A stretch of 64,000 nt of DNA from Amoebophrya sp. A120 (GCA_905178155.1 CAJINV010000005.1:984564-1048563); one strand, 5' to 3'. Counted from the stretch's first letter, positions 1-52,500 are shown. The notes: a model not told the origin generated them from the sequence alone. Translations and numbers: made by a program.

Positions 1-3000
1 TTCTTCGACAAGGGGCACTTCCTGTGTCCCGCGCACCTGCTGTGGCACGAGTTGGTCGAGGACTTGAACTACGGCAACACGCGCGGCCTACTCCAAATGC
101 TGCTGGACGACATGAAGCGCGGGAAGGTGCAGGACCTGACCAGTGCGAGGAAGCTGAAGAACAAGCTGGATCAACATGGGAATGCACCCGGTGGACGAGG
201 TGGACAACCGCGGAGGAATGTATTTTCGCCGAGGAACAACGACTACCTAACATCCGCTGCTGGCGTTACTGGATATAATGATCTTGACCCACAGCAACAA
301 GCAGACAAATCTTCCTTCACCTTCCAAATGAACAATGCCGTTGCCTCCTCCGTGTCCCCGCGCGTTGCCGGCAACCAGCCCTTCCTGGCCGCGGAAGTGT
401 CGGGGCAGTTGTTCGCGGCTTCCGAGGTGTCGCACAAGAACCTCGCGGACTACGTGAAGCAGGATCGCAGAAGAACACGGGAGCTCAGCGGGGACTTGAA
501 GGGCATGTACAACCACCACCGCGAGGGCCAGCACTTCGCGGAGGATTTGAAGGCGATTGGCGTCGACGCGGAGACCGTCGAGCAGCTGGCGAGCGAGGGC
601 TTGTTGCCGGAGAAGGAGGAAGAGGGAGATTTGGTCACGGGGTCGTCCCCGGCCGCTTCTCCCTCGTCGCCCACCGCGGCGGACGATGACCGCAGGTTAG
701 CGAGGCTACTGGCGTCGCCGACGGGTGACACCGCTCCGGCACAGCTGCCGCGCGCCGTCACCCGGCCCATTCACGAAGTGGCTCCGCAGGTTGCGGAGGT
801 TTCCGGCGTCGTGTTGCCGCCACCGCAGCAGGCCGAATTGTCCGGGGTGATTTCCGATCCTCCCCCGCGTGTCGCCGAGCTATCCATGGTGAGTCCGCCA
901 CCGGCAAAACGAACAAAGCCTGTCGGCGCCGCTGCTTTCAAGCGCAAGATGGCCTCGTTCGCTTCCGGCGAGCAGAGCCCAACGTCGCGAGGAAAAGTTC
1001 GCGAAGTATCCGGCGACGGAGTAGATGACATGATGGACCGTTGCCAGCAGCAGCGACGAGAGCCAGATGTTACTAACCCGTTGCCGAACCAGCCAGTCAC
1101 AATACCGACCGCACCCAAGCCGCCGGCGTTCAACAGTTGGCAGCAAAACGAACCCGAGGTGAACGAGATTTCAATGAAGAAGCTGCCAACTATCATGGAA
1201 GAAAGGGACAGGCAAGCGGTTCCGGCGGCAGCCGAACCTGCGCGCGTCGAGGCGCTGAGCTTCGGCCCTACAGTTGCGCAACCCGCGCATCAAGTGGAGG
1301 CGCTGAGTTTTGGCCCGCTCGGGCCCCCGAAGGTGGAGGCGCTGAGTTTCGGCCCAACCACCCTTCCTCCAAAGGTGGAGGCGCTGAGTTACGGTCCGAT
1401 TCCGAAGGCACACGGTGCCTTCCCCTCCGGACTCGCCTCCCCCATGGACATGAGCAACCAGGTGCAGGCCCTGAGCTTCGCTGCCCAACCCGCCTCGCCC
1501 TACGCTGCCGCGGACAGTCTACCAAACGCGGCGGCGCGCACGCCAGTTTATTCCCCAACCGCGTACAAAGTTGGAGATCTTTACGGCAACAATTTCAACA
1601 AGCCCCCGCCCCTAGACCTCTACGATGAGGAGGTGAAGCACCGGCTTTATTTGGAGAGGGAAGCGCTAGAGGAGCGGGTTCGAACCATCCTCACCGGCAT
1701 CATAGAGGCTTGCGCGCAGACGAACTCCGTTTTTCTCCTAGGTCGTCCCTCCGGCGGGAACCGGTTGTCCGAGATTCTGTGCGAGAAGCTGCGCCCCGGG
1801 TGCAACGCGCTGGGGTGTTACACCCTGGACGAGTGCACCACGATCCCCTCCATCGTGTCCCCCAACGTACAGTACAAGTGGCCTACGCAGCGCGAGATCG
1901 AGAACAGCATGTGGAAACACAACTTCCAGGACCCGGCGCGGACGAGGATACCGCAAAAGGTGTTCGAAACGGCTTGCGTGGACGAACGGGAGGAGGTTTA
2001 TGCCGTCGAAAAAACGTACTACCCACTTTTCATATTCATGCAGCAAGTACCAGGCGCGGCTCTCGCCCACAAGGGGCTTTTTGTAGTTTTCTGATAAATT
2101 CACTAAGCAGGATCAGATAGTGGATTGGCGATGTAGCAGCACCAGCTAAGCGCACTAGCTAAGCGCACTAGCTAAGCGCACTAGCTAAGCGCACTAGCTA
2201 AGCGCACTAGCTAAGCGTACTAGCTAAGCGTACGAGCTACGCGCACGAGCTACGCGCACGAGCTACGCGCACTAGCTAAGCGCACTAGCTACGCGCACTA
2301 GCTAAGCGCACTAGCTAAGCGCACTAGCTAAGCGCACTAGCTAAGCGCACTAACTAAGCGCACTAGCTAAGCGCACTAACTGAGCGCACTAGCTCAGCGC
2401 ACTAGCAATCTATGTGTGACTTGTATAGCGAGAGTCACATGATCGTGGCCACGTGGTAAGAACGTTTTTTCGCAGGATGACGTAACCGAAGTAATCAACA
2501 TCCAGTCCGGATTGACGGAGTATGAGAGTACTTGTGTCAAGGACGGCAAAACCATGCTGACGTACGGCGGGTGCATGAAAAACGTGACGCATGTCTTGGT
2601 CTTCGCGACGGACCAGGTATATGATGTTGCTGAGTAGAACATGCACAAGGACAAACAAGGTGATTTTTCACGATCGCGTTATCCCTTTGTAGAATATTGT
2701 CTGAAGTAGAGAAAATAAAGTTGAAATTATCAATCAGGCCCGCAAGAAATTCTGCGAGCTTTTTCTCGAACTTTTCTCGGTCGGCTTGATCGTGGCGGGC
2801 GGAACCGGTCCGATCGCCAAACTCGGGCTGCGCTGCCTCCGCACGGGTTCTCCGCTTATCCTATGTAAAAACATCCCCACCCCAGAGTCAAGATGGGGAT
2901 TTTGCAACACAAACCTTGAAGTTTTGGAAACCACGCATGACAAATTGCAGGCTGTAGTGTAGTGCAGTTTAGCAAGGGAAGCCGCATAACAAATCGATCT

Positions 3001-5822
3001 CCTTATGCTGTTTACAGCATTACAAGTTCCAAAACGCGATTGATAATGCCCCTCATGGGATCGCGCATTACAAACGCTCTCGTGCTTGCAGATCTGCATG
3101 ACAACTCTGTGGTGGGGACGTTTTTACACGGGATACCGCTGTTCATTTTGGAAGGCACGGGCGGTCCGGCCGACGGGTTCGCGGAGCTCATGCGGATTTA
3201 CGAAATGTTCTTTTCCCCGGACGCACTGTACCCCCGCGCGAGTCTGAAGTGGATCCACGAGGAGATCGAGAACCGGTTGACCAAGCGGAACCCTCGGTAC
3301 CACTTCACCTACCACCACTTTTGGACCTTCGCGCGGAACTTCGACGAATCCTTCCGCCACAATTCCGTCATGGTGGTGAATTTATCCTTAGATAACCCGC
3401 AGATGAAGATGCTCCCCGTCGAGCGGCTCCAGGACGAGATCACGCAGGTGATGTCGTCCGTGCACGAAAACTTGGGGGAGATCGGCAATCAAGAATCCGA
3501 GACGCGGGCGATCCAGCACGCGGCCGATTTGTTTGGCGTATTGCTCGACGCGGCGCGAAATTTCCGGTTCGCGGCGACCATTCTGATGACCGTGATCCGC
3601 GTGTTGATTCTCGTCTCCACCACTCTAGCCTTGGCGCAAGTGTGGCTGGAAGCGGCGGAGGACCACCACCCGTTCTTCATGCACAGCAGCGATCCGGGGC
3701 AGGACCGCGCCTGGGCTATTCTCTGGACCCGACGGTTAAACGTGGTACTTCCCTTACTGATCTCCGTCCTCGTCACCTTCAGCGCGAGCTACCGGCCGCT
3801 GCAACGGTTCGTCACCGTTTTCGCCGCGGCGAAACGGATCGAGGGGGAGATTTGGCGGTACCGGGCGCGCGTCGGGGAGTACGTGCCCGTATCGGTGACG
3901 GCGATGAGTTTGAGGAAGAGGAAATCCGCGCGGGAAAACTTCGCGTCCACCGTGGAGGAGATCTGGACCAGCTGCGGGTCCGCGGATTTACGCCTCGGAC
4001 ACTTCTCCCGGTTTTTACCGGATATCTTTTCCTCGGATCGGAACGTGCGCTCCTCCGCGCGGGACGTGCAGGGGCTGCAGTCCTGGAGCAACAATCGGTG
4101 GAGCCGGTCGAGGTCCTGTTTTACCGACGACGGAGATGACCCGCATAACTCCTTCGTCGATCCGCAACGAAACACGAGAAGAAGCTTCGGCCGGTCAAAT
4201 AGCTGGGGAATGAACAAGTTGGGAAAACTTGCCGGAGGCAAGGGCGCGCAATATCAAGACCGGTACGGATACTCTGGTAAAAATCTCGACCCACACGATG
4301 ATTATGGTGGAAGTAGGCGTGAAGCGTTTTACTTCGGAGATGACCAGCACAGCGACCATTCCGGCGACTCGCCTTACCACCACGGCAAAAACCAGGAAGT
4401 AAACAAGCGCAGTAAGTTTTACGGAAAAATGATGACGAACACACGACGCCGGGGCTCCACCGCCGATTTTTTGCTCGATGACAACAAGAAACCTGCCACC
4501 GGCCGGAGTATCAGTTTGAAATTTTTGGAGATGGATAAAGACGATGAAAATAGGTTGAACGCGCCAGTGGTGACGCGGAAGCGGGAATTTTTATCGTACA
4601 AGGCCTGGACGGAGAAGAACCGGGGCCGGGACAAACTTTTGACCGGTGGGGACAAAAACAGTCTCACCTGCTTATCAAGGTGAAAAATGCCCCTACCCCC
4701 GAACGTGGGAGCATTTGTATTGCAAACCTTTCCAAATGAAACATACGCCCTCTTGCATCTTCAGCACCACAGATTTCCAATCGTGAATAGCAAAACTTTG
4801 TATTGCAAAAGACCCCAGCAAAAGTGGCGCTTGTCATGCAAGCGATGCGATACACGCGTAGACTCTGCACCAGAAAGATTCATACTTCTTTCATGCATGA
4901 CAAAAAGTTTGCATCTGGGAACTTCGCATCACAAGTTTTTACGACTTTGGGGGTGGTGGCATTTTTCACTGTAATACTGCTCCGCCGAAGTGTACGTCCG
5001 CGACCGGGTTTTGCCGCAGTTACGGGAGAACGAGCGCATGACGCCGAAGCTGGCGATATGGAATGCAAATATGTCTGGGTCATCTGGAAGAATGCACGTT
5101 TGTCATGCATGTCTGGCATGACTCTTACATCTGTGATGCATGAGCAGGAAAAGGGCCTCGTGCCTGTCATGCAAAAGCGCAGTTTATCATGCGGAAAACG
5201 CAACACTGAGCAGCGCAGACCTTTCTCATGCAAAGCTGTGCATTACAGAGCATTCACGATTCCCAACCAAGTATTACAAGTTTCCAGACCCAGACATATT
5301 TGCAATGCATAGGCGAGACAGCTGTACCAGTTGCAGTTCGCGATCATTGTTTTGAACGCGAGTAACGCCGCGTTGGTGGCATTCGGGGCGGCGGTCTGGG
5401 TGCCGTTGTTACTCGCTCTCGCGTCTTTACTGGAGTACTCGGTAACGTACCAGGCGTTGGAAATGCGGCTGCCGCACATGAACGCCGCGACGAACACGTT
5501 GGTGAAGTTACTTCTCTGGTGGGACGGGCTGACGCGCATCCAGCAGCGGATGCCGGAGAGCAAGGAATTTTTGGTCGATTCGGCGGAAAAAGCGATTTTG
5601 TTACAGCACGACGCGTTCGTCACCGGCGCGCTAGCGTCGCTCCGAGACGCGATCGGGAAGAAGCAGAATCAGAGCAACGACGCAACCGGGGCGGAATTGG
5701 AGGGAAATGGGAATGGGCAGTGGAGAGGAAATTCCTGTGTGCAAGTCGGGAATAGCGGAGGGTTCAAAGGAGGGACGGGTGGGGAGTCGCTAAATCGGAG
5801 CCAGCGGGCGCATAGCATGTAG
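1..5822 (+). CDS. 5'-partial multi-exon gene: low-complexity N-terminus + SLOG/LSDAT (TRPM N-terminal-like) domain + two SLATT-like 2TM domains
   Basis: Frame is open from base 1. GT-AG introns at 2047-2475 and 2617-2737; introners at 2857-3135, 4673-4976 and 5057-5311. The spliced product contains ILTGIIEACAQTNSVFLLG, NVTHVLVF and LIVAGGTGP..RTGSPLFILEGTGGPAD (LSDAT-like), then LPLLISVLVTFSASYRPLQRF..AAKRIEGEIWRYRARVGEY and EVYVRDRVLPQL..LYQLQFAIIV..LLLWWDGLT..LVDSAEKAIL (SLATT-like). Stop at 5820-5822. Confidence 0.75.
2144..2405. repeat. 13-bp tandem repeat (GCTAAGCGCACTA), about 20 copies, intronic
   Basis: Directly visible head-to-tail copies with minor variants (GCTACGCGCACGA), inside intron 2047-2475. 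Confidence 0.95.
2857..3135. mobile_element. Introner, TIR family B (279 bp), TSD CCGCT
   Basis: TATCCTATGTAAAAACATCCCCACC...GGTGGGGACGTTTTTACACGGGATA. CCGCT at 2852-2856 and 3136-3140. Removal gives ..RTGSPLFILEG.. Confidence 0.93.
4673..4976. mobile_element. Introner, TIR family C (304 bp), TSD CTGCT
   Basis: TATCAAGGTGAAAAATGCCCCTACCCCC...GGGGGTGGTGGCATTTTTCACTGTAATA. CTGCT at 4668-4672 and 4977-4981. Removal gives ..SLTCSAEVYVRDR.. Confidence 0.92.
5057..5311. mobile_element. Introner, TIR family A (255 bp), TSD GGCGA
   Basis: TATGGAATGCAAATATGTCTGGGTC...GACCCAGACATATTTGCAATGCATA. GGCGA at 5052-5056 and 5312-5316. Removal gives ..MTPKLARQLYQLQF.. Confidence 0.93.
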
Positions 5823-6311
5823 AATGCATCTTCGAAGTAGATGCGTCTTTTTATTAAAAATATAATTTTTGCGGTCGTTCAATTTCTTGTTGTAAGGTTC
5901 TTGTTTCGAATTTTGTATCTCCATCACGAATGCTGCACTCGCTCCTACGCTTTGTACAATCATAGCTTTTATTGTCATGTCATTACATTGACATTCCGAT
6001 CTTGCATCGACACTAGCAGGAGAATTGGGAAATGGTCACGAACGTGCGCCAAAGCGTCACGCAGCCGGTTGCGCTGTAATGCTTGTGTATATAGGACCGC
6101 ATACTTTTTTCCATTTGATGTCGTGGCGTTCACCTCCGTTGTCTTCGCCTTCGTGTCTGAGCGCCAGAGCTGGTTTGCTTGGATAGAGTATAGTGATGGA
6201 GTGAAGTAAAGAGTGCCTTTGGCTGCAAAGAAAAGCGAGTGCACGAAAGGCTGCTGCTGTCAATGCACTGTCTAGTAGAAGTCTGGCTGTTCAGAAGTTA
6301 AGGAAAAAACG

Positions 6312-9300
6312 ATGACCACCGAAGAGGGGCTCGGCGGCGCAACGCCGTCGGCTTTTCCAGAACCGCTAAGCGTCGTCGACGTGGTTGCCACTGAAGATGT
6401 CACAATTACGGAAGATAGGCCAATCGAAGGCGAGCTTACCCAGGCCGCCGTGTCCGACACCGAGAAGCCGGCAAGTGAAAACCCGGCCAGCGAAATGCCC
6501 ACCGATGCAGCCGGGGCTCTGGGTTTTTGCAAGGAGAACCAGGCCCAGTTTTTGTCTGGTATCACCGTCGCATTGGCCATGATCCCTGAGGCCGTGGCGT
6601 TTTCCTTCGTCGCGAAGGTGGAACCGCCAGTGGCTCTCACGGCAGCCTGGATCATGTGCTTTTTCACCGCCGTAGCGGGCGGCAGGCCAGGTAAAAAAAA
6701 CATTTTGCCACCCGGTCGAGTTCCACGACCAGTGCTCATAAGATAGTTAGGTGCAACATGGGCACCGGGCAAGTTGCAACTCTCGAACCCACTATCACAA
6801 CAAAAAACCAGGTATGATTTCCGGTGCCACCGGTTCCATGGCGGTGATCATGACGTCCATAGTCACTGACGAAGGGGTGGAGTACCTTTTCTGGTATCCT
6901 GTGTAAAAACGTCCCCACCCCAGAGTTGTCATGTAGATTTGCAATTGCAGGAACATTTGTAATGCGCGTCCCCAAGGGAGGCATTTCCAATCGTGTTTTG
7001 GCATTTGTAATGCTGCAAACAGGATAAGCAGATGGATTTGTGATGTGGCTGTCCTTGCTAACATGCACTACACTACGGACTGCAACTTGTCATGCGTGGG
7101 TCCCAAAGCTTCTGGGTTTGTAATGCTACGCTCCCAACTTGACTATGGGGTGGGGACGTTTTTGCATATGATATCTGGGCCGTGATGTTTTGCGGTTTGT
7201 TTCAAATCCTGCTCGGGTTCGCGGGCATCCACAAAGCACTCTCCCTGGTCACCTTCCCTGTCAAGATCGGGTTTCTCAACGGGCTCGCACTGGTGATCGG
7301 GAAGGCGCAGCTGGAATCCTTTTTGATCCCGCACGGGGAGACCACCGAGAAAACCGAGCATTTGGAGATCGTGGACTTCGTGTTGGCGACCAGCAACTAC
7401 GTGAAAGCAGACAAACTGATCGTCATGCTGGTACTAATAGTATAGCAACAGCTAGCTATAGGTTTTTTTCTGGAGAAATTCCGTCATAGCAAGTTTGATG
7501 GTTTCAGCATTCTTGCAATGGTTTCGGCGACAGCAAAACTCTTTTTGTCCTCTTCCTGTGCATTTTTTGCATCTGCTCTTCAAAGAGGATTCATTTTCCT
7601 GTTCCAAGCGAAAGAAGTATCAAACCCGCGGCCTAAAAAATAAGGTCCTTTCCTTCATCGCCCTGGGCATCAACTTTCTTCCCGAAAAGTTTCAAAAATA
7701 CCCCCTCGCGCTTATCTCCATCGTTTTCGTCACCGTCCTGGAGCACGCCTGCGTCCGCACGTTCATTCTGCCGGATGAGGGAACTACGCTCGTGGAGGAC
7801 ATGGCGAATCTGAAAGGGAACTTCCTCGAGGTGGTGTTTAGCAAGTACGACATGCCGAATCCCTTCAACGACGGGGGTGCACTCGCGTCGACGATTCTCA
7901 CCGCGGTTTATTTGTGCGTGATCGGGCTCACCGAGTCCCTGATGACGTTGGAGAAGATCGACGAGATGCTGCCCGACTCCCCGCCCGGAGATGCGAGACG
8001 GGAGGTTTTGGCGCAGGGCGGCGGCAATTTGATCTGTGGGTTCTTCGGGTCCATGGGCGGTTGCGCCATGATCGGGCAGGCCATGATCAACGTGCGGAAT
8101 GGCGGCACGAAGAGGATAGCCGGTATGACGGCCGGTGTGGGCACGCTTCTGATTATGGTGGCCATCAGTCCGGTTATAGGAAAAATTCCGGTTGGCAGTT
8201 TGGTCGGAGTGATGTGGTATAATTTTTTCCAGCTACGAAGATCATCAAGATCACACATCAAGAATTACTATCGCTTCGCATCTAAAATGTCCGAAAACGA
8301 GTACAATTGCACCTCCTACTCATAACAGGTGCGTGTCGTATCACACCTGGGAGAAAAAGACCCACATCCTGTTCTACGAGGCCTTTACGGGCAAGCCCTG
8401 GAAGCCGATTGAAGTATACGTCGTCAGCGAGGAGGCCGTGACCCCCGCGGTGGAGTCTCCCGCAACGACCGAAGGCGGAAATAGAAATCAGCTGCTGCCG
8501 CCGGGCGGCGATAATGTGGTGCGGGTGATCTCCGTCAGCAAGGAGGCACTGGCGCAAGCCGACGTAGGCCGATCGGGCTCCAAGGACCCACCCCCAGCGG
8601 ACGACTCGTTTGGGCAACCGCCCAGGTCCCAGCCCAGTAAGGAAACGGTCGGCAGCAAAGGATCGGAAATATCATCATGTACAGATAGATATTTTTTTGG
8701 GTACCGATTTTTTTTTGTTGTACTACAAATACAAACAGAATTATGAGGAGTATAGCAGGTATGCTGGTTCTTGTTTGTTCTTCGATTGCGACAGCGGCGC
8801 ACGTGAACAAAATCGAATGCACAATGAATTCTACTACCAAAATGCAAAAATAGACTCCGCCGGCGGCACGCGCGTGGTCCGCAAGCGGTCCAAGGGACAC
8901 TACCACCACGGCGTCGCGGGCGAGCAGAGTCCCGCGGCTAAGCGCGAAGACATCGTTTCGCATTTGGACAACGTGGTCGTCACCCCGGCGGCGCTGCGGG
9001 ACCGATCGCGGCTGTCCAAGGAAGAAGCGGAGGACGTTATCGAAAGGAAAAAGCCCCCCTCCCCGTATCAAACCGGAACTTCTGGCGCTGGATTTGCGTA
9101 CACAGATCAGCTTTGTCTTGCTGGAGAGGACTGCTGGCCCATATCAAGCCTTTGTAGGGAGATTTTGGCCTAGGCGCTTAGAATGAGAAACGTCTGCGCT
9201 GTAGGCTCACCAGCATCACAAACCCCCTGCGTAAATGCGGCGGCGCCTGTGGAGTTGCCTTCTTGCAAGACAGAGATGGTTTGTGGTCGACAATCAGCAT

Positions 9301-10158
9301 TGCAAATCTTCTGCGGCGTGCCTTTTCGATATTGGGAGGGGGAGTTTTTCCTTTTGATAGACGTGCAGCTCGGTTTGGCGGAGCTTTCCCGCTTCGACTG
9401 CTTCATCGTGGTAGTGGTCACCATCGGGTATGAATTGCAAAAATGTCTGGGTCTGGAAGATTCTGACAGTTGTCACGCACGTTTTGCATGAGCCATGATG
9501 TCTGTGATGCATATACTAGCAATACAGATTGTTTGAGGGCTTCTTGATGCCTATTCCGCATCACAAATGCCTTCTCATCGTAGCAAAAATTGCATTCCCT
9601 TCGCTACTCATGCAATACAGATTTTTTTGGAATCCAAAGGCAGCATCACAAGTTGCAATCTTCCAGACCCAGACATATTTGCAATGCATATCGGGACGCT
9701 GATTACCAATCTCGCCATCGCGGTCGCGGCGGGAATCGTGATGTCGAAGCTCATATCCTAAGTAAAAACGTCCCCACCTCAGAGTTGTCACGCAAACTCT
9801 GCTGGCTGAAAATATTTCTCATTGCGGAGCTCCTCGAGAAGCATTTTCTAGTCGTGTTTCGTAGTTTGTCATGCTTTAAAAATCAGCATTATATGCTAGA
9901 TCTGTGATGCTGCTGAACTACCTGAGCAGCATTACACTACGAGGCCAAACTTGTCATGTGCAACAGCCAAAGCTGGTTGATTTGTCTAGCAGATATCTCA
10001 TCTTGATTCTGGTGTGGGGACGCCTTTACTCAGGATAGCTCAACAGCTTGTACCTGCAAAAGTACGGCGACGACAAGCCCGCCCCGGCGGACGCGAGTAC
10101 GAAGCCAGCGGTGGGCACACCCGTGGCGCAGGACCCGGAATCGCTGGCGCCGAATTGA
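6312..10158 (+). CDS. SulP/SLC26 family anion (sulfate/bicarbonate) transporter, multi-exon
   Basis: [90 protein letters not shown] and [10 protein letters not shown] are SulP motifs. Four GT-AG introns and four introners. Stop TGA at 10156-10158. Confidence 0.9.
6895..7173. mobile_element. Introner, family B (279 bp), TSD TCTGG, opposite orientation to 2857-3135
   Basis: TATCCTGTGTAAAAACGTCCCCACCCCA...TGGGGTGGGGACGTTTTTGCATATGATA. Removal gives ..EYLFWAVMFCG.. Confidence 0.93.
9038..9359. mobile_element. Introner, family D (322 bp), TSD GACGT
   Basis: TATCGAAAGGAAAAAGCCCCCCTCCCC...GGGAGGGGGAGTTTTTCCTTTTGATA. Removal gives ..[13 protein letters not shown].. Confidence 0.92.
9429..9690. mobile_element. 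Introner, family A (262 bp), TSD TCGGG
   Basis: TATGAATTGCAAAAATGTCTGGGTCTGGAAGA...TCTTCCAGACCCAGACATATTTGCAATGCATA. Removal gives ..[13 protein letters not shown].. Confidence 0.94.
9754..10037. mobile_element. Introner, family B (284 bp), TSD GCTCA
   Basis: TATCCTAAGTAAAAACGTCCCCAC...GTGGGGACGCCTTTACTCAGGATA. Removal gives ..[12 protein letters not shown].. Confidence 0.92.
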
Positions 10159-11275
10159 GGAGATTTATTTGTTTCCGGAAATTAAGTTTCGCATGATCCA
10201 TCATCCAGATGTGCTAATATGCAAAATAAGGCCACCAGTCGTGGACAGTTATCCGTCGAGAGAGAGAGAGAGAGGAGCTCCTAATGTACTACTCCCTTAC
10301 TTGTTTTACAAGATATACTCGCAAGCAGGCGGTAAATGTAAAGTTACTGTAAAATAAATTCGATATTGAATTGATCTAATTATCAATCGGTGACTTTCAT
10401 CGCCGACCGCTGCTTTAGAACCCTATACAGAAGTATTTTGGAACTTTTCTCTTTCACAGTTCCTTGTCCTTACCTGGGAACTTTTGCAAAATTGTATGAT
10501 GGATTCGTTTCCTGAGGTGAGGAAAATGTTATCTACTTCCGGTCAACTACAAAATGCAGGATGATGTGCTACTCGTTGGTATTAGAAGCTCTGGTTGTGT
10601 GTGCCGTGCCCTAGACAGCGGCCGAAGCATCATTGTGCTGGTGCATGTACTTTCTTTTCTTGCGCGCCTCGTATGCACACCGCGTGCGGTAGTTTTAACG
10701 TCACGTGCTGTCTACTTGCAGTGGAAAAAATAGGTCAGCGGTGCAGGAGAGAGTGTTGAAATTCAAGTTCACAAAAATCTGCTTGTCGTTATATTTCTTT
10801 GTACGTAGAAGTTCTAGTTTCGTATTCGTTCGGTGCGGTCAGTTCGTGCAGTAAAACAACCACTCGTTCTTCACACAGAAGCTGCAAATAGAATCTTTCG
10901 TCCTGTCGTGCACCTATTTTTTCGTCGCGTCGTGCAGGAATGGAAATGGTGGCCATAAGTAACGGCGATAATATCATGCTTTGGTCCGTGACCGGTCACA
11001 GCTTTGCCGTACTTAGCGCATGCTTTGTTTTCTGAAGTTCAGCTGCGATTATACCCTGCCACGTGAACGATGCCATTTCAATTGCTTTTTCTCCGTGTCA
11101 TGAGCTCAGCTTAACGACGGATTAATTTGATTCCCACCCCGCGAAGGTATGTACATTTGTGAAGATGTCTCTTTTACGACAGCGCAAAAGCAATATATGA
11201 TTCTGTTTTTTTCCTAAACTAAAACAAGCCATTCAGCCTGCCACGACTTCAGCGTCAGCCTTGATTTATCGTAGT

Positions 11276-14200
11276 ATGTGTGCTTCATCTTTTCGACTTT
11301 ACTGCGCTTTGGTAACAGCATTTCACCGTCTCGCTCTGTTCCCGAGGAGCATCAGCGGTAGTTCTTTGAGATTACGAAAAAATGCCGGCCATCCGTCCGA
11401 GCAGAAGAAACCTATACCCAGGTCGTTGTCCTTTTTGTCCTCGAATAAACGCACGTCAAATCGCAACCGACCGCACCAGGACAAACCTCGGGGGCGGGCC
11501 CTACTAGAGCATAAGGAAAATATTAAGGGGCCGCTCGACGATGTGGCTAGGTTTTTTGGATTGCACGGAGGAGAAGACGAAAACTTCAAGCGCAAGCCTT
11601 GGAAGGTGTCCCAAATCGCCTGGGGAGAGCCCGGTGACGCGACGTGTCCCCCCGGGTCGGATATGCATTGCAAATATGTCTGGGTCTGGAATGTTGCCGG
11701 GTTTGTTATGCATGTTTTGCATGACCCAGGATGTCTGTAGTGCACGATCTAGCATCACAGATTTTTAGAGGGCTTCCTGATGCCTACTTCGCATGACAAA
11801 TGCCTTCCCCGCGTAGCACAAACTAGACTCCTCTTGCTGGTCTTGCAATACAGATTTTTTCAGAGTCCAATGTTAGCATCACAAGTTCCAACCTTCCAGA
11901 CCCAGACACTTTTGCATTTGATATCGGAACCGCTGGACGAGCGGTCGTGCGGGGATGCAGTGTACCTGATGCTCGACCACCTTATCAAAGTGAAAAATCC
12001 CCCCTCCCCAATTGAAACGAAGTTTGTGATGCTGGACTTCCGTACACAAATCAGATTTGTCTTGCTGGAGAGGACTGCGGGCCCATATCAAACCTGAGTA
12101 GGGAGATTTTGGTCTACACATTTAGCATGAGAAGCGTCCGTGCTGTAGGCTCAGCAGCATCACAAACCGCCTGCATAGCGCGGCGGAACCTGTGGGGCTG
12201 CCTGCTTGCGAGACAGAGATGATGATGATGATGTTACCCAGTAAAGGGTTTAGGGTGTTGAAGAACTAAAATATTCCTCAGCGTCGTGCTGCTCCTCAGG
12301 ACGTTCTCCTTCGTCGCAACGTCTGCGGCCACGTTTCTTCAACTTGCGCCGTGCCTGGTGCGATCTCATCGCCCCCACAATCCATCCCAGTTTGCGCAGC
12401 GGCTGTCCTTCGTCGGGGGTGTGAAATGTGGCGTCGTCGTGTTGAAGCTCGTACTTGTACACCTTGCAGTGCGGGCGCCGGATATGCTGCGCCCCCGCTC
12501 GGTCCGTGTAGAGGGATTCACGGGGCAGATGGTAAGCCCACGCCGAGGCACCGCCTCCGTAGGTGTACTTCGCTTCCGTCCTGTTCCAGCCATGATTTGT
12601 GGTCGCAAATCAGCATCACATGCCTTTTCGATATGGGGAGGGGGAATTTTTCCTCGTGATACACCTGCAGCTTTCGCACCAACGCTGGCCGGTGATCTCC
12701 TCCCGGGACTTCGTGGGACGTGGCCCCGATTCTGCGGGGTATTGGCGCGGGGAGTTGGGGTGGGAAAACCGCTGCGCTGGGGATGGAGAAAGGCGTTGCG
12801 GGGTGCATAACAAGAACTTGCCGTTCTACGGCGAGAAGCTGTGGGGCTTCCATAATTTGCCTGTGGGCTGCAGCGTACAGAGCACGGGGCGGGACCCGGA
12901 GGTGGACGTGCCGGGGACGCACGTGTGCGGCCCGTTAGATCACCAGTGGAGAATATCCCACAGAATAAAGAGACAGGCAGGCCATAAGTATTTGTGATGC
13001 AAAAAAGGAAAAAATGAAAGTATCATCTCTCTGGCGTGTCAGAAGCAGCATAGGGACGACGCCCATGACAGATCTTTCTGTTTAAAGTAATTTGTTTCTG
13101 CACGGTAAACATCAAGTATGCCAGGCCTGCTCTATTTCTGCGGGATAGAGGATGCCGCATTATCGCGACCCGAGTTACCGGGTGCCGCCGGACTGGTACC
13201 AGGTACCGGAAGAGGAGATGCACCTTGATAGTGAAATGCTCCTTCAATTTCAAGGTGTGAGAAGAGAAAGCGACGCTTGCCGCGAATGGCGCAGTGCCTA
13301 TATCCCGGTTTGCCGCCGATTGGAGGACATAAACGACAGTGTTTCAGAGGACGAGATTGCGGATCTTCCAGCTTCCTGGACCACGCCTCCAGTCGCGCCG
13401 CAGACGATAGACGAACTAGCTTGGGGCGAGCCGGGGGACGCCGACTGCCCGCAAGGGTCACACCCCCTGGAAGAGTCGTCTTGCGCGGTGGCCGTTGCGC
13501 TGCTACGCGAATACCATGATTGGACAACGAATATTCCCGGGCGCGTGCCGGCAGGATATACCGCGACCCCGAGGTTCCACACGACTAGCGATCTGACGTG
13601 GCCGGAACTCAGTAAAGAGGCTAGCATTAACAACCAACAGGACGGTCGGTACAATTTTAACGGCACTTCGTGTTCGAACGTCACCGCCGGTTTTAACGCT
13701 TTTATCCTACCTCACCTCGGAATCGAGTTTGCGCTTAGCGATAGCGAAATTGCGCGGGTGATAAACAGCGCCTGCCCGGTAAACGTGAACGTGCCGTTCA
13801 ATCCCGGCAGCACTCTAATTGTGTCACTCCCGGAAAGCCTCAGTAAGCTGCCGAATCCACACGAGCTGTATGACATGTATCGGGCTCGGCATAAAAACTG
13901 GACAAATGCTGAACCGTGGATGAAGTTAGCGGATGCCACAACTGGGTGGCAGAAGCAATGGGATTGGTATAATGTTCCCCTGGGTTGCAGCATCCAGTCC
14001 TCGGGCCGGGAGGTGGAACAGCAGACGCCGGACTCGCACCCCTGCGGAGCTAGCTTCACCCCGAATCGCGAGGCGCACTGGCGAGACGGCGAGGTTCCCT
14101 CGGACTGGCACGAGCCAAACGGTGCCTGTCGCGCGTGGCGCAGCATCTACATGCCGGTTTGCCGCCGCGACCGGCCGGACTCGTGGACGCCACCGGAAAA

Positions 14201-18310: not shown

Positions 18311-18410
18311 NNNNNNNNNNNNNNNNNNNNNNNNNNNNNNNNNNNNNNNNNNNNNNNNNNNNNNNNNNNNNNNNNNNNNNNNNNNNNNNNNNNNNNNNNN
18401 NNNNNNNNNN
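18311..18410. other. Assembly gap (100 N)
   Basis: Run of exactly 100 N. Confidence 1.
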
Positions 18411-22753: not shown

Positions 22754-22817
22754 TCGCTGCAAGGAATACATCACTACCGTTCGCGTGATAAATTCGCATG
22801 AAAATTTCTAGAGAAGC

Positions 22818-23749: not shown

Positions 23750-23846
23750 TTCGATACTACGCTTTGGGATGGCATGCCACGGTAGAAATTCGCTCCAAAT
23801 GAGAAGTTGTCGGCGTGCGCATCCTGTCCGGTGATTTTCGCGTGCG

Positions 23847-35410: not shown

Positions 35411-38400
35411 ATGGCGGACGAATACGACCGGCATACCGTCCAGGAGGATCCTGGAGGACAGCAGGAGCAGGATGTCGAACAACGGATATCCCAACCCGAG
35501 GAGTCGCCTGTCAGAAAATCGCTGGAAGCGAAGATGCAGGACGAGAAGCGGAACCTCGTGAACCGGCTGAAATCCCTCCACCATCGGTTCGTTTTTTGGT
35601 TTTGCGCCACCTTCGCGGTAAACCTTTCCGTTGCGATTTTCACGCTTTTAATCTGGTCCCACATCGGCTACGGTGCCAGCAGCTACCGGTGGGCGATGAA
35701 GCAAACGACGGTTGGGTTTTTCTTGTGGTACGGCGGGTTTTTCGTGTTATTTCTACTCTACCTGTTGGACTTCTTCACAGCGCCTTACGTGACGAAACCC
35801 AGCCGGTCCGAGGTGCAAGCTCTCATCGCGGAGGAGCGAGCAACCGGGACGAGCAGCATACTGGATGAAGAGGCACTGAAACAAGCGGCGGAGCTAGCGG
35901 AAAAGAACAAACAAGAAGCTCCTGCTGCTTCACCGCAAATATTACCCAGCGCGGCGCCACCAATTCCAGAAGTGGTGGTCGAGGGCGAGCACAAGTCGGA
36001 GGCACCACCCGACAGCTCCGTTCCGGCGGTTCCCGCTGCAGCGCCCGCAACTAGTCCCCTGCCGTCTATCGCAACGCCGAAGATGGTCACGCTCGCCCCC
36101 CGGGAGGAGCCCCCCGCCCTTCCGAATTCCGAGTCCACTTCGACCGTCCGGCATCTGGTCTGGGGGAACAGACCCGGCGAGGTGAACGAGTACGGGACGT
36201 TTTTCCTGCGGTTTGTGTTCATCATAACCGGCTGCATGGCGTTGTGTTGGGGCGTCACGGCAACAGCCAGGTATCCGCACTACCCGGTCATGATCATGCT
36301 CATCATGCTCGCGTTGCTGCAGGTCATGGCCAGGTACAAGTTCCGACCGAAGCAGACCAAGCAGCACGACTTTGCGAAACGGCACAAGGGGCAGTCGGTG
36401 ATCCGCGTCATTGCCTCGTCCATCCACGACCCGCACCGAAGGTACGAGGCGGTGATGGAGGTGTTAACCAGGCATTTGCTCGTGGCGCACGACAAACTTT
36501 TGTACTACAAGGCTTTCGCGATCTCCACGCTTCTCACCGCCATGCTGGTTTTTAACATTTGGCTCCATTGGGCGTTTATCGGCGAGAAGAAGTACTGGGG
36601 CGCGGAGGTGCGGGAGGAAATGGTCGCAGACGGCGTGCAGCCGGAGGAAGAGTACGATGTGACGGAGAATCAGGCGTTTAACATGCAGTTCAACATCTGG
36701 GCGGCGCCGGTCCTGTTCTGCGTCGGCCTGGCGCTGCTGTTCGGGTTGCTGTCCCTGCGGGCGTATCTGCACATCCGGTACACGAAGACAGACGACCTGC
36801 TCACGGAGATTTCCCGGTCGGTCGCCTCCGTGGACCACGAGCTCGGGGACAGCATTCTGGGCGTCGGAAACATGGACGCGTTGGTGGAGACGGTGAAAAT
36901 TTGCGTCTGCGGGTTGTTCGCCACCGCGTTGACGTTTTGGGTGGCGGCGGAGGTGGGGGTCGGGGCGAGCAGCTCGGCCTTGGACATTTCCACCACGGTC
37001 CGGACGTTCATCGCCGCGTTGCTCTTCGCTTTCGTGGTCATCATCGCCGCGACCATGCGAAGATTGTACGCCCAGATGCTGGAGCACATGTGGAAGAACC
37101 CCTTTCTGAAGATCACGATCTCCGCGCTGCAGTCCGACTGGCTGAAAGCGTTGTTCTTGCTTTTGTTCTGTATCAAATGCAAAAATGTCTGGGTCTGGAA
37201 GAATGTATGTTTGTCATGCTTGTCTGGCATGACTCTTAAATCTGTCATGCATGTTACCCAAGAGCCCCACTTTTCTGTCATGCAGAAACGCAGTTTGTCA
37301 TGCAGAAACAGGCAACACCAAGAAGCTCAAAAACTTGTCATGCTGGGCCAGCTCTTGTGGCCTCCTCATGATACGCCACCCAGCATCACAAATTTCCAGG
37401 CCCAGACATCTTTGCATTTGATATTCTGGTGGATGCTGCCATTTTACTACTTAATCAGCGCGCTGAACAAGCTGGTGCGGGTATCCTATTTGAAAACGTC
37501 CCCACCCCATAGTTGTAATGCAAATCTGCATGCTGAAAATGTTTCTTATGCGGAGCCCCATGAGAAGCATTTTCTAATCGTGTTTTGCAATTTGTCATGC
37601 TCCAACCAGCATGGTATGTTAGATCTGTGATGCTGCTTAGATAGCTCAAACAGCACTACACTACGAGTCCAAATTTGTCATGCAAAACAGCCAAAGCTTG
37701 TGGATTTGTGTAGCCGATTCCCCATCTTGACTATGCTGTGGGGATGTTTTTACTCAGGATAGCGGGATTGCCGAGGGGTGTCGGATCAACAGTACTACGA
37801 CCCTGAGAAGACGTTTTTCCTCCCGGACCCGTGGCACAGCAGGTGCACGAAAGCCTGCAGCGCGCAGCTCGGGCATGTCGCGCAGTGGAACAAAACGAGC
37901 GTGATATCGAAGTATTTAACAAATGGAAATAATGTTTTTCATGCTAGTTTTCTTTTCGTGTGGTTCTATTTTGCCTTGCACCTGCTGCCTCTCGTGATAG
38001 TTTGGCATGAGCCTGACCCTTTCACGACGGTACATTGATAAAAATCAAAACAGTGGACAAAAATAACGCCTGTACTACTTCGATCAGGGCCTACGTCTGG
38101 GCGCTCGCCGTGTTCACCCTCAACGTCGGCTGTACCAAGGGACTGAACCTCGGTCTGATCGGTCTGGGCGAGGTTCTCAGCGGGAAGCCGGCGTACCAGA
38201 TCCTGATTGTGTGGTACATCGCCGGGTTGGTCGGGTTCTTGCTCCCCCCAGTCCCCGGCCCACCGGTTTATCTCTTCGGCGGCTTGGTCGTCGTTGGCGC
38301 GTTTGAGAAGGAATTTGAGGACCCGGATACGGGGTTTTGGCTCGGGTTGGCAATCACCTCCGTCGTCGCGTTGATTCTAAAATTGAACGCCTGCGCGATG

Positions 38401-39866
38401 CAGCAGAAGTGTATCGGGCAGCCCCTCGGGTCCTACAAGTTCATCCGGGCCTTGGTCGGGGTGCACACACCGACCATTCGGGCGATAGAAGTGGTCTTGC
38501 GGCAGCCGGGGCTCACGTTCGGGAAGTGCGCGATCCTTTGTGGAGGCCCGGACTGGCCGGTTAGTGTGCTGACAGGTACTTACTACTTATGGGAGTTCTA
38601 GTACTCCGGCCAAACAAACTGCTTGTTCTCTGATGCATTGTACTTAGTTGAAGCCTGTATCTGTAACTATGATACATCTTTTTGCCCTCCTGTGACTGCG
38701 TGGGCGCGCAGGAGCATGAGGAGATTGAAGATTTTCGCTGCAGCAGCCTCATCACCAGACCAAAATAACTATCAAGGCATCCTTCGGTGCCGGCTCAGCC
38801 AGATGTTGCTGGGCACGTGTCCGATCTTCATCTTCGTCACCCCCACTGTGATGACGGGCGCGTTTAAGAGAAAAACGGACAAAATCTTCGTCACGCTCAC
38901 GGCGTTGTTGCTCTTTTTCAGTGTCCTCCTCGCATGCGCCATGGGTGTCGCCGCGTGCTACGCAATACAGGAAGTGCTGGACTCGCACGGTCCGCTCATG
39001 ACTGTTCCCTTAGAGGTGAACAAGGAGCTGCACTGGCTCGACTACAAGGCTGAGCAAAGGAACAAGTTCTACACCCAAGCGACCCAGTGGAGCAAGCTCG
39101 GACTGCCGACGAAATTTGCGATGCTCTTCGGCTTCCTTCTCATGTCCGCGCAGGCGTACGTCTTCTTCTGGATGGACGCCGACTGCTTCGGAAACTTGGA
39201 TGCCGTTCTGACGCAGGACAAAGACGCGGTGAGGCCAGCTGGCGTACCTCTCTACACGCTGTGGTGGAAGCTCGACGCGCCGGAAGGGCTGCTGAGTGAG
39301 TACAAAATACAAGTGGTGAAGCGAGTCGGGCAGTACGCGCTACTCAGTCTATTCCTCGGAACTTTGATCTTCTGGGCCTACGGGAAAGTCCTGCAGCACT
39401 TGGCGGCGCCGGTACTATTTTGGTGGTTGAGACTTGTGTCAGCTCTTGGTGGGTTTTACACGACATTGAACGAGAGAATTCTTTTGTTTTGCAACGCAAT
39501 TAAAAGTTGACGTTCGGGGGATAATGTTCGTCTTTCGCGATGATTGATTCAAATAAAAAACTTTTACAGCTGGTGGAAGCCTTCGAGAAGGACGTGGACA
39601 ACCAGCGCGCGAAGTGGGAGAAGGAGCAGGAGATGGTGCGCGACGAAATCGAACGGGAAATGGTCGAACTCTACCCCGATGACTACGAACTCTACTTGGA
39701 GCACACCGGCAGGCCACGGTTGGAGCCGCAGCACCACGAGCAATCCGACCAGGAGTGGGAGACAAAGAAAAAATTGCAATCCGACCAGGTCGTGGAGAGC
39801 GAAGGGCTGAGAAAAAGGGAGATAGCGAACAACGCCGACAATGTCAGAATATCCGACGGCAGCTGA
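35411..39866 (+). CDS. Large polytopic membrane protein (more than 15 TM) with a DedA/VTT (SNARE-associated)-like segment
   Basis: Many hydrophobic helices. GFLLPPVPGPPVYLFGG and CAILCGGPDWPVSVLTG motifs. Two introners plus GT-AG introns near 37912, 38576 and 39412. Confidence 0.78.
37171..37423. mobile_element. Introner, family A (253 bp), TSD TTCTG
   Basis: TATCAAATGCAAAAATGTCTGGGTCTGGAA...TTCCAGGCCCAGACATCTTTGCATTTGATA. Removal gives LLLFWWMLPF. Confidence 0.93.
37482..37761. mobile_element. Introner, family B (280 bp), TSD GCGGG
   Basis: TATCCTATTTGAAAACGTCCCCAC...GTGGGGATGTTTTTACTCAGGATA. Removal gives KLVRDCRGVSDQ. Confidence 0.92.
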
Positions 39867-41978: not shown

Positions 41979-42014
<36 letters not shown>

Positions 42015-49543: not shown

Positions 49544-52500
49544 ATGGCGGGGGCAGCCACCGAGGAGCGGGTGGACAGCAAGGAGGCCCCGGAGAATGTG
49601 GAGGCCAAGGCCCCGGCCGGCTCGCAGCCGGGGAGCGGGATAAAGATCGACCCGAATTTGCCCTTCGACGACCAGTGGCAGAGCTCCGACCCGGAGATAT
49701 TGCGGTTCGTCCCGCCAGACGTGTCCGAAGAAGCGGATGCCGCCAAGGACCGGTCCGGGCTGCAGAAACCAAAAAACATTTTCGCGCCGAGAAAGATCTC
49801 CCTGGAACTCGGGTTTTTCCGAAGGTTATTCTCCATTCTGAACTCCCGGTTCGGCGATGCGCAGGGCGAATTGTCGACCGCGCACTTCGAGCGGACCATG
49901 TTGCGCATGTTCAAAATCATCGGGTCCACCGGCGAGGAGAGAGAAGGAAAGACGTTCAACGCCGAGGAGTACGACGTGGATGGCAGTGGTATGATGATTT
50001 TTTGCACTACAGACCGATTGTAGAAGTTGTCATGCTGTTTGCCGTATTTTTACAACCTGAAATTTATTCTTGATAGTTGAAACTTGCGATGTTGATGTTC
50101 AGTTTGTGATTCCGATGCGGTTTGCGCGCAGTGCAAATTGGGTGGAATGGTTTTCCACCGATTTGCGATACGGCAACTACATGCCAATCACCCAAAATAA
50201 AACAGGCGCCGTGGGCTGGTGGGAGTTCGTTTCCTGCTGGAAAAGCAATGACTTCCACATCACCTGTACCTGGTCGGAAAGGATCTGGCTGTCGATAGAG
50301 GTATTTCATTAAGGGAAGGATTCTATAAATTTTTGTTGCTAGTAGTTGCAAATTTCTCTTGCCCTTTGTCATGCTTGACTTCCACCTAGTAGGGTTGAAC
50401 AATCTATGGATGAAGATAATGCGAAAGTCAACCGATAATTGCCATACCCACTAAACAGGATTCCTCATCGTGCCGGATCGCTCAGTGGGTGCAGACGACG
50501 GTGATGATCATGATTATCGTTTCCTCCACCTGTTTTATGATTGCCACCCTCCCGGACTTGAAGAAGTCCCCCGGGCAGTGTACCCCCCGGTGCGACAACA
50601 TCGACACCAGCACCGCCTACGAGGAGTTCGAGTGGTGCAAGCGGGAGTGCGAGCCGCAGCAGGCGGACATCTTCTGGACGCTGGAGCTGATTTGCGTGGT
50701 GATCTTCACCGTGGAGTACGGCGTCAGAATATGCTGCTTCCCGTTTGCGCGAGCGGAATTGTTCTCCTCGGATATCCTCCTCGACATGTGCCTCGGAGAT
50801 TTACCCATCGCTTTCCAGTCCTCCAGGCAGCGGCTGTTCAATTTCTTCTTTTCCCCACCGAATCTCGTCGATTTCTTCGCCATCGTGCCCTTCTACTTCG
50901 AGGTGATATTGGAGGGTGTGATGGAAATCCAGGGAACGGCGGTGTTGCGGGTCATCCGGTTGACCAGATATGAAATCCAAAAATGTCTGGGTCTGGAAAC
51001 TTGTGATGCAAGTCAGTCAATAACAAATGCACTGTAATGCGCCGCCAAGCATGACGATGACAAGTTGCCTCGTGCTTGTGTGCTGCGTATTCCGCATGAG
51101 AAACTGCGTTTTTGCATGACAGGCGAGAGAGGCTGTCTGTGTCGTCGAAACCGGAGTCGAAAACCGGAGTAAGAGGGGCCGTCGGACCGGGGAATCGCTT
51201 GCTGGTTAATATGTATGCGTGACAAGCTGGCTGCGTTTTGCATTCGTGGCAGTCCAGGAAAGAGAAAGAACTAGTGAAGCGATCGGATCGACGAGGTGCG
51301 TCAGGGGGCGTCACTCATTCATTCATTCATTCATTCATTCATTCTGTGGCCACACAATACAGATTTAAGGGCCATGCTAGATCAGCATGACAAATCTCGC
51401 AATCTTCCAGACCCAGACATTTTTGCATGTGATACCAGGTTGTTCCGGTTGATGAAGGCCGTGAAGTATTTCGAAACGCTGCAGATCATCGGGCGTGTGC
51501 TGCGGAGAAGTATGCAGGCGTTAACGGTGCTGCTGTTCTACCTAACCCTGTGCGTCTGCTTCTCCGCGTCCTTGCTTTACTTTGCGGAGAGCGGCGACTG
51601 GGATCCAGCACAGGAGGAGTAAAAACTTTTGATTGCTTTGTTCTGTAGCGGTACTAGCGCAAGAAGTCATGACAAGGAAGTGTGTTCGTTGCTGTTGTAC
51701 CACCGAAGATGATCTGCATGACTGAACGTATAACAAAAATAAAACTACTAGAGCTTGTTACTGTCTTCCAAAATCCTTTCCCCAGGTGGATGCGAACCAA
51801 CTGGATCAACAATGGACGCGAGCCTACTCCGTTCAAGTCCATTCCGCATAGTTTCTGGTGGTGCTTCGTGACGTACACGACGGTCGGGTACGGTGATATG
51901 GTGCCGTACTCTTCGCTCGGACAGATGTTCGGTGTCGCAACCATTTTAGTCGGCCTGCTCGTGCTGGCCATGCCCATTTCGGTGTTGTCAAGTAACTTCG
52001 GCGAGGTGTGGCGAGAAAACCAGGAAGAAATGAGATTGCAGGCGAAAAGCGACGAGATTGTATTGCATATTCTATATTATTAACATGAGAAAACATCATT
52101 AGTGACACTTCACCTTATTTCATTCCACTTTTTTGCCTGTAGTGCTGAATTCGATTTGCATGGCGATGGCCTGTCGTATAAAGTGACCGTGATGTCCACG
52201 TATGCAGAAAACAAAAACTATTAATGTCAATCAAGAAAAATGTAAACTAAAACAGGAACGGGAGGCAGTGGAATCTGCGTTGGCCATCAAGGACCCCGCA
52301 GAGCAGCTGAAGAGGGTATTGATCGAGCTCTACGATGAGGACGCACTGGGCGAACGCGACTTCCTGGGCGAGTGCCAGATCGAATACGAGAAAATAGGCC
52401 TCAGTCCGGATTTGTGCGGCGAGATCAAATTCGATACAATAGAGGTATGGGATAAAATTTTCAGAAAATTTCGGATCCTTTTATTCATGAATGACAGCGA

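Follow-up and report, generated by a model that had tools for sequence, protein, structure and literature searches.

Introner elements of Amoebophrya sp. A120 were described by Farhat et al. 2021 (PMC7789003) with 29,850 copies, whose inverted repeats (IRs) show a motif of TAT, 7 nt and at least three As and whose direct repeats measure 3-5 nt; the passages of that paper used here leave the cut position open and give no clear splice signature. TIR elements of A120 likewise create introns in the study of Gozashti et al. 2025 (PMC12130899), in whose excerpted account family 38 of A120 has ORFs similar to Copia/Gypsy, the best published lead to the mobilising enzyme, whereas no Copia/Gypsy-like ORF occurs in any copy examined here. 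In class 12 of Polarella glacialis (excerpts of Roy et al., 10.1101/2020.10.14.339549) the geometry is the same, with a 5-nt duplication whose last base forms the 5' site together with the element's first base and which also provides the 3' site, but those elements depend on the duplication for G and AG (NNAGG/NAGGH), while the A120 duplication is unconstrained: its length agrees with class 12 and its sequence does not, the composition being unbiased and NNAGG appearing in 5/200 copies among those listed. The nonconventional introns of Euglena (excerpts of Nomura et al. 2025, PMC12501133, and of the review PMC11282704) share the TIR and direct-repeat anatomy, have paired motifs at fixed unequal distances and no GT-AG, and are excised, in euglenids, as circles; however, their motifs are CAG/CTG, set 3 and 5-6 nt from the cuts, and their exons start with a purine, whereas in A120 the motifs are TAT/ATA, the spacers measure 1 and 4 nt and the exon start shows no preference, and the motif N3-CDG ... 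CHG-N5-6 is replaced here by N-TAT ... ATA-N4.

The window of this study is the whole stretch of A120 DNA analysed, 64,000 nt in length. The 17 elements which a sequence-only reading had noticed in it are the published introner elements of A120, already annotated, so that the system is not new. That reading had called them similar to introners reported in Amoebophrya; the published likeness stands, and the system is in fact identical, with the public annotation already removing the elements. The host, the IR motif, direct repeats within 3-5 nt, removal without GT-AG and families recurring in the genome, all five features of the A120 introners, are found here, and with the excerpted description (PMC7789003) our elements share the TAT+7+AAA IRs, the 5-nt repeats, the non-canonical RNA-supported junctions, the many families and the transposase-free interior. 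There is no difference in kind from that description, and three junctions here point to a fixed cut. This cut, with the intron starting 1 nt before TAT and ending 4 nt after ATA (register 4|1), is likely the one addition over published work; in the portions of the literature searched no paper was found stating the A120 cut register, and published figures or datasets may show one.

Elements and their host genes

Table 1. Introner elements and host genes in the window, with positions counted from its first letter.
Feature	Coordinates	Strand	Duplication	Host gene or remark
Family A, reversed vs 6895	2857..3135	.	CCGCT	gene 1
Family D	4673..4976	.	CTGCT	gene 1
Family B	5057..5311	.	GGCGA	gene 1
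Family A	6895..7173	.	TCTGG	SulP gene; hairpin z -6.2
Family C	9038..9359	.	GACGT	SulP gene
Family B	9429..9690	.	TCGGG	SulP gene
Family A	9754..10037	.	GCTCA	SulP gene
Family B	11662..11923	.	TCGGA	gene 3
Family C	11983..12661	.	CACCT	gene 3; holds ~357-nt insert, (CAT)n tail on minus strand
Family F (weak link to 29864)	12954..13147	.	GAGAA/GAGGA	gene 3
Family B	27664..27895	.	TGAAC/TGAGC	gene 4
Family E (~150 nt)	27956..28104	.	AGTCC	gene 4
Family B	28343..28607	.	ACAGC	gene 4
Family F, near-palindromic	29864..30034	.	TGCAG	gene 5
Family B	37171..37423	.	TTCTG	gene 6
Family A	37482..37761	.	GCGGG	gene 6
Family B	50969..51434	.	CCAGA/CCAGG	splits Kv S4 segment; holds ~210-nt insert, (TCAT)n tail
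18th, degenerate element	intron 61013..61234	+		TAT at 61014, ATA ending 61230; GT..CG
Gene 1, membrane protein, open at window start	1..5822	+		3 elements; start not fixed
SulP-family anion transporter, 685 aa	6312..10158	+		4 elements, 4 GT-AG introns
Gene 3, unknown protein	11201..15851	+		3 elements; start not fixed
Gene 4, 175 aa	27562..28751	+		3 elements
Gene 5, unknown protein	29455..30773	+		1 element
Gene 6, multi-pass membrane protein	35411..39866	+		2 elements
Voltage-gated cation channel (Ion_trans)	49544..53612	+		1 element

As listed in Table 1, all 17 elements were confirmed in the window; their ends are TAT...ATA and each is flanked by a 5-nt duplication, though the 5-bp repeats which the sequence-only reading had given to every element are perfect in 14/17 and carry a single mismatch in 12954, 27664 and 50969; the 18th element (61014-61230) falls beyond the range 2857..51434 covered by that reading. 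With a fixed criterion of TAT..ATA ends, at least 15/25 positions paired and a duplication matching at 4/5 or more, 16/17 elements were recovered and 30 dinucleotide shuffles gave 4 hits in total, the 17th (12954) having a gapped TIR and being recognised by eye. The published IR start of TAT, 7 nt and at least three As is present at one end or more in 17/17 window elements, and the three A positions hold an A in 158-163 of the 166 further copies listed. Pairing of the ends is predicted in 17/18 elements (mean 0.43-0.96). The number of six families, also claimed before, holds if 12954 is joined with 29864 (67% over 134 nt), and a separate comparison of families put the two apart. Families A and B each occur in both orientations in the window. 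As had been noticed, no copy was found outside coding exons within the window, where coding exons make up ~60% of the element-free DNA; the spacing of the elements peaks at 26-90 nt, and an 11-nt periodicity in it is weak (p 0.012) and carries no conclusion here. Moreover, GT..AG ends, the mark of canonical U2 introns, appear in 0/17 window elements in any product-equivalent register tried, which is stronger than the earlier statement of their absence in most, and in 9/166 locus copies among those listed.

The TIRs, the fixed-length duplication and the absence of coding capacity are those of MITEs. No Rfam match at gathering score was obtained in the window, and two frames of the largest insert, in 11983, gave no Pfam hit, by which a transposase remnant in this insert was rejected. 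Within the window and among the harvested copies, which are elements of up to 900 nt, no mobilising enzyme was found.

The spliced SulP model equals the public Amoebophrya sp. A120 protein P0001 in every letter over 685 aa, and the spliced gene 4 model likewise equals P0121. When each element is taken out with 5 nt, the frame is open in 7/7 genes, as the earlier claim of frame restoration had it, with the exception that 37171, if retained, adds 258 nt with no stop, so that frame rescue is no test there because retention leaves the frame open as well. Of the motifs said to be restored, the SulP junctions (gap-free in alignment to homologues and orthologues) and the R-x-x-R pattern of the Kv S4, re-formed by removal of 50969, do hold; the SLATT label of gene 1 derives from one sub-threshold hit to DUF4231 (E 0.0077), which we take to be SLATT and which crosses no junction.

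Removal from RNA-like contigs and further copies

Eleven elements, namely those of gene 1, the SulP gene and gene 3 together with 50969, were compared with RNA-like contigs (X1-X4) that come from one sample, whose RNA nature is a guess, in which rare variants were dropped, and which may be the same data that underlie the public annotation; 27664, 27956, 28343, 29864, 37171 and 37482 stand outside this comparison. The elements are absent from these contigs in 8/11 cases, by 2 direct joints, 5 exact length matches and 1 partial match, in agreement with the exact removal from transcripts that had been anticipated, and the other 3 are uncovered: for gene 3 (11662, 11983, 12954) there is no transcript contig among those listed and hence no evidence either way. 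For example, a direct joint 6889>7174 leaves out 284 nt at 6895, and at 50969 the joint 50962>51434 leaves out 471 nt, with 5 letters fitting either side, in 4/4 runs of the one sample. An RNA-like contig of 2334 equals the model with both 4673 and 5057 removed, another of 2541 equals that with 9038, 9429 and 9754 removed, while for 2857 the support is partial, a contig piece beginning at 3136 in a record that continues for 274 letters. Eleven GT-AG introns are likewise missing from the same contigs. The X5 contigs, by comparison, read through introns and element ends, so that element ends adjoin their flanks there; 17,686 contigs were matched, with a depth piled on the elements that is not a copy number. 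The raw-read runs X7 and X8 cover next to nothing of the window.

Frame-compatible GT..AG pairs do exist within ~15 nt for 11/18 elements, whose use would shift the removed length by 3-24 nt. Splicing at such nearby canonical sites, named by the sequence-only reading as what would speak against it, was rejected where covered, since neither the joints seen directly nor the contigs of exact length make use of them there. The data thus support removal at the RNA level at the elements' own ends and, as suggested earlier, in both orientations, wherever an RNA-like contig covers them.

Families A-F recur elsewhere, and at least 228 copies from at least 148 loci (L001-L148) were harvested, with a family B seed and elements of up to 900 nt, so that family shares are biased, and from loci that may differ in strain from the window. 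Of the 228 listed, one of which (L022) is a mis-call, 208 were orientable, 200 of them with at least 3/5 duplication matches and 166 with perfect ones, while 107 passed the phase filters; the orientation method was correct on 16/18 window elements. Among the copies listed, a perfect 5-nt duplication occurs in 183/228, lengths of 4, 6, 7 or 8 in at most 2, and phase is kept in 96/107 scorable copies upon removal of one copy. Family B is oriented 69:63 relative to the sense strand among the copies listed, 7 window copies included.

Register of the cut

The evidence for the register lies in three junctions with imperfect duplications (61013, 50969 and 27664), one from the public annotation and two from RNA-like contigs of one sample, which intersect at register 4. 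In 61013, where 2/5 duplication positions match, the joint 61012>61235 (222 nt missing, 0 letters fitting either side, 4/4 runs of one sample) maps to one register only, 4|1, with GT..CG ends. In 50969, position 5 in the RNA comes from the right copy, which allows cuts up to position 4, and in 27664 P0121 has position 4 from the left copy, the model being equal to it only in registers 4 and 5. We hold it quite probable that the 4|1 register is general. As for the claim that the element ends define the intron, removal does occur at the elements' own ends where contigs cover them, and the cut is likely offset from them by 1 nt and 4 nt.

Register 4 places TAT at +2..+4, just as in GTAT, the host's commonest donor (GTA in 30/31 and GTAT in 17/31 introns, 11 RNA-mapped and 20 predicted), and only under this register is T found at +2 in 166/166 copies, among those listed. 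All 9 predominant non-canonical motifs of A120 in Table S4 of PMC7789003, including GT-CG, AT-AG and CT-AG, have T at +2 in the excerpt used, and these motifs may reflect aligner preference. In A25, with TTA ends, the 9 top motifs all begin with TT, and TA at +2..+3 may be the rule common to both. Moreover, register 4 turns 5/200 oriented copies, among those listed, into ordinary GT-AG introns.

Neither G at +1 (51/166) nor AG at the 3' end (14/166) is enriched in the copies listed, and the idea that the duplication is selected to provide G or AG was rejected for want of bias in these 166 further copies. A window hint for G, with the right copy having G in 3/3 position-4 mismatches, is followed in the larger set by G gained in the intronic copy once and lost 6 times. 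The exon's first base is unbiased among the harvested copies listed; a codon model of which copy is exonic, applied to 34 imperfect duplications, gives at most a hint against the register, leaning to the right copy at position 1 by 7:2. No end hairpin is predicted for 61013 (end-pairing probability 0), which counts against the hairpin as guide. Because this eroded copy is spliced all the same, the full TIR stem may be less important than the short motifs at the ends.

Agents of removal and movement

Taking these results together, we consider the elements to be the published A120 introners, in the best overall explanation probably removed by a relaxed U2-type spliceosome with a 4|1 cut. That the genes are pseudogenes and the missing stretches arose by DNA deletions or by template switches of reverse transcriptase at hairpins or direct repeats is scarcely credible. 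Strong hairpins with short direct repeats are a known setting for template switching, and the RNA nature of X1-X4 is, as said, only guessed; but at 61013 the joint lacks a matching repeat and no hairpin is predicted, the SulP protein after joining aligns gap-free at its junctions, phase is kept in the harvested copies, and in X5 the element ends adjoin their flanks. It is also improbable that the register floats, the cut falling at varying places inside the direct repeat, with the repeat rather than a fixed offset giving exact removal. The synonymous mismatches in imperfect duplications (19/34), which could mean that both copies are sometimes exonic, would suit such a float, as would splice sites termed variable relative to the hairpin in the legends of Fig. 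3 and S23 of PMC7789003; against it, 61013 maps to a single register, register 4 is common to all three informative junctions, and eroded duplications leave a fully open frame in 5/7 copies after the element and 5 nt are taken out, 2 being ambiguous (by eye).

The spliceosome, guided by the element ends, we slightly favour as the catalyst. Terminal guanines matter for the second step of spliceosomal splicing, and the missing enrichment of G+1 and AG counts against a spliceosome, as does the U1 snRNA undetected in A120. The same 4|1 cut might be made by a separate, non-spliceosomal endonuclease/ligase measuring from the TAT/ATA pair, which seems to us rather unlikely; a system of this kind is suspected for the nonconventional introns of Euglena. 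Such a ruler would fit the unconstrained terminal dinucleotides of the 166 copies listed, the predicted pairing of the ends, the missing U1 and the 61013 intron, which passes over a CAG (61212-61214) 20 nt upstream of its end, and its unequal fixed spacers of 1 and 4 nt would resemble the 3 and 5 around CAG/CTG of Euglena (excerpt of PMC12501133). However, the 5' cut coincides exactly with the position expected from the host GTAT donor, some copies in the 4|1 register are plain GT-AG introns, the A120 spliceosome is nearly complete in the excerpted survey (PMC7789003), and the tunicate Fritillaria splices non-canonical introns by the spliceosome (excerpt of the review PMC11282704).

Under spliceosomal removal, TAT would be read as donor positions +2..+4 of the host GTAT with G+1 dispensable, and the 3' site would be set by the distance from ATA, the TIR stem helping and AG not being used. 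Given the symmetry of the two ends, an insertion would be spliced scarlessly whichever way it points and whichever 5-mer it hits, and exons could therefore be colonised. The elements would move as non-autonomous DNA elements by 5-nt staggered cuts of a DDE enzyme encoded elsewhere, and we tentatively place this enzyme in the integrase-like DDE class.

It is conceivable, at somewhat less than an even chance, that A120 uses a second splicing code, N-TAT ... ATA-N4, needing no terminal dinucleotide, direct repeat or full hairpin, in which a ruler from two 3-nt motifs cuts tens of thousands of introns, the machine being a spliceosome freed from G+1/AG or a new endonuclease-ligase. If the 4|1 register is fixed, the absence of a clear splicing signature becomes an exact and testable rule, which would explain the scarless removal in both orientations and at any target, make degenerate copies such as 61013 predictable and set the area in which to search for the branch point. 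Moreover, it would tie A120 to Polarella class 12, with the same geometry and constrained ends, and to the Euglena introns with their ruler-like spacers.

Anatomy and sites of the elements

A scan of the window that did not presuppose TAT, but required inverted ends flanked by identical 5-nt repeats in direct orientation, gave 16 pairs, 14 of them TAT...ATA elements; the other two lack these ends and were judged to be chance. Two more, 27664 and 50969 (elements are named by window start), appeared once the scan was relaxed, and 12954 was spotted by eye. Under one fixed criterion the window holds 16 elements as compared with 4 hits in total over 30 dinucleotide shuffles, and with 12954 this bears out the 17 described in the sequence-only reading. 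The 5-bp direct repeat which it gave to all 17 is perfect in 14 and has one mismatch in three, while its statement that most lack GT..AG ends was too weak, since none of the 17 has GT..AG in any product-equivalent register. Its six families reappear, with 12954 joining F only weakly, and A and B do occur in both orientations; all host genes lie on the + strand. The frame opens in all seven genes once element plus 5 nt is deleted, as had been claimed for removal with one duplication copy, and retention brings stops into the coding frame, 37171 excepted. End pairing is predicted for 17 of 18 window elements, the exception being 61014, a degenerate copy outside the range of that reading, with no predicted end hairpin and no matching direct repeat at its joint.

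Elements of the window by family (window start coordinates)
Family	Elements	Remark
A	2857, 6895, 9754, 37482	2857 reversed
B	5057, 37171, 9429, 11662, 27664, 28343, 50969	5057 and 37171 opposed to the others
C	9038, 11983	
D	4673	
E	27956	
F	29864, 12954	12954 weakly linked
	61014	degenerate; intron 61013-61234

A larger sample came from at least 148 loci of another assembly, found by one pattern scan seeded with family B, so that family shares are biased; the loci listed yielded 228 distinct copies. Among these, 183 of 228 have perfect 5-nt duplications, one-copy removal leaves the phase, called independently, intact in 96 of the 107 copies that could be scored, and family B lies 69:63 with respect to the sense strand. 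Flanks are coding-like in 190 of 215 copies, a rate equal to that of held-out coding DNA (161/181) and far above that of non-coding DNA (17/130).

Gaps between neighbours in the window are 4977-5056, 9360-9428, 9691-9753, 11924-11982, 27896-27955 and 37424-37481. Over window and listed loci, 54 of 100 gaps measure 26-90 nt, none is below 26 and only 8 fall in 91-155, with a weak periodicity of ~11 nt (p 0.012); such clustering suggests that new elements are targeted to sites beside one already in place. Some copies carry inserts themselves. For example, (TCAT)n-tailed inserts at window ~51126-51345 and at locus L049:681-853 are 95% identical at slightly different sites, while the rest of their family B hosts is less similar (78% across the full alignment); a short retro-like element probably inserted twice, independently. 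The 50969 copy bearing one is still exactly spliced. A (CAT)n-tailed insert in 11983 (~12220-12590) has a tail end recurring at L075:38-61, with ~33 nt matching roughly 500 reads of the raw-read run X7, and a further insert, at L024:632-1465, contains a comparable triplet run. In L063:1597-1876 and L035:975-1302 the repeat at the flanks is shifted by 3 nt (8-nt duplication, 5-nt repeat displaced 3 nt); these may be survivors of imprecise insertion, because both are in frame whichever removal rule is applied.

Most of the 31 GT-AG introns of the window measure 112-217 nt, and one, predicted to be 429 nt long, spans a 13-nt tandem repeat near 2140-2410; the introns have neither G at +5 nor a pyrimidine tract, and are A/C-rich ahead of CAG. 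The ends of one of them, 8217-8328, read G-TAT...ATA-ACAG, as would those of an old introner. Intergenic direct repeats of ~100-215 nt (23231-24456, 26000-26543) are unrelated to the TAT elements, and a 100-N assembly gap (18311-18410) lies directly upstream of a long open frame.

Removal from transcripts and position of the cut

The RNA comparison covered window stretches 2460-13400 and 50400-61750, using contig runs of one sample that were taken for RNA by guess only and are possibly the same data underlying the public annotation. In the first stretch, run X1 contigs lack four GT-AG introns; a direct joint across 6895 omits 284 nt, namely element plus 5; a contig of 2334 letters equals the model with 4673 and 5057 removed, and another of 2541 letters the model minus 6895, 9038, 9429 and 9754; at 2857 a contig piece begins at 3136. 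In the second, joints occur in four runs over seven GT-AG introns, over 50969 and at 61012>61235. The exact removal claimed earlier is thus seen in RNA-like contigs wherever they cover an element, with a partial view at 2857; six of the 17 elements lie outside both stretches, and gene 3, with its three elements, has no transcript contig among the matches listed, which is evidence neither way. Run X5 behaves as DNA, because its contigs cross introns into element ends (17,686 aligned, depth concentrated on elements); a second, diverged X5 contig at ~10730-11230 and ~12800-13260 suggests a paralogous or duplicated region. Raw reads of X7 and X8 gave almost no coverage of the stretch.

Perfect duplications conceal the register of the cut and imperfect ones reveal it. 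At 50969 the contigs retain the fifth base of the right copy, which puts the cut no later than position 4; at 27664 an Asn in the public protein requires the fourth base of the left copy, so it lies after position 4 or 5. At 61014 the duplication copies agree in 2 of 5 positions and the joint maps to one register only, with the first intron base 1 before TAT, the last 4 after ATA, and ends GT..CG; a CAG 20 nt upstream of the intron end, whose use would shift the frame, is skipped. Low-depth X3 and X4 contigs within this intron are perhaps unspliced RNA. Common to all three informative junctions is register 4, in which the RNA keeps four duplication bases from the left copy and the fifth from the right.

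Register 4 places TAT at intron +2 to +4, and no other register gives T at +2 in every copy. In a codon test of the register on 34 imperfect duplications from the listed loci the picture was less clear, position 1 favouring the right copy by 7:2. All nine predominant A120 motifs in Table S4 of PMC7789003 have T at +2, to which aligner preference could contribute, and the accessible text of that paper terms the cut position variable or unknown. A fixed register would add modestly, and in a testable way, to the published account; it was not found stated in the literature examined, where unseen figures or datasets may show it.

Removal machinery and mobilisation

Of 31 host introns, 11 mapped by RNA and 20 predicted, 30 have GTA as donor and 17 have GTAT. 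We favour, with moderate confidence, a relaxed U2 spliceosome as the remover, because the 5' cut coincides with this host donor frame, because 5 of 200 copies at the listed loci are ordinary GT-AG introns in register 4, and because class 12 elements of Polarella share the geometry, but with constrained ends, according to the accessible part of a preprint (10.1101/2020.10.14.339549). Against part of the spliceosome reading, duplications at the listed loci are not enriched for G at intron +1 or for AG at the intron's 3' end, and their position-4 mismatches show no preference for G. The A120 ends carry no chemical constraint, and therefore a separate removal system, by analogy with Euglena, is a serious rival, if a less probable one. 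Whichever way round it lies, a symmetric element would begin (5') with TAT and end (3') with ATA, and machinery cutting 1 nt before TAT and 4 nt after ATA would remove exactly one duplication's worth of sequence at any target.

No mobilising enzyme was found in this analysis. A fixed 5-nt duplication suits a DDE or integrase-type enzyme. In the accessible text of Gozashti et al. (PMC12130899), an A120 TIR family has Copia/Gypsy-like ORFs.

Relation to the published introners

Searching with the SulP transporter exon recovered a protein assigned to Amoebophrya sp. A120, 100% identical, and an A25 protein, 78% identical; the spliced model equals the A120 protein across all 685 residues, and the gene 4 model equals a second A120 protein. 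For this organism the accessible text of Farhat et al. 2021 (PMC7789003) gives >60% non-canonical introns, inverted repeat motifs starting with TAT, 7 nt and at least three A, direct repeats of 3-5 nt and 1,954 families comprising 29,850 repeated introns; its authors detected neither U1 snRNA nor a transposase in A120. The sequence-only reading had described real elements correctly and had interpreted them correctly, in a system already known: by these identities and descriptions, the window elements are a direct view of the published introner system in its published organism.
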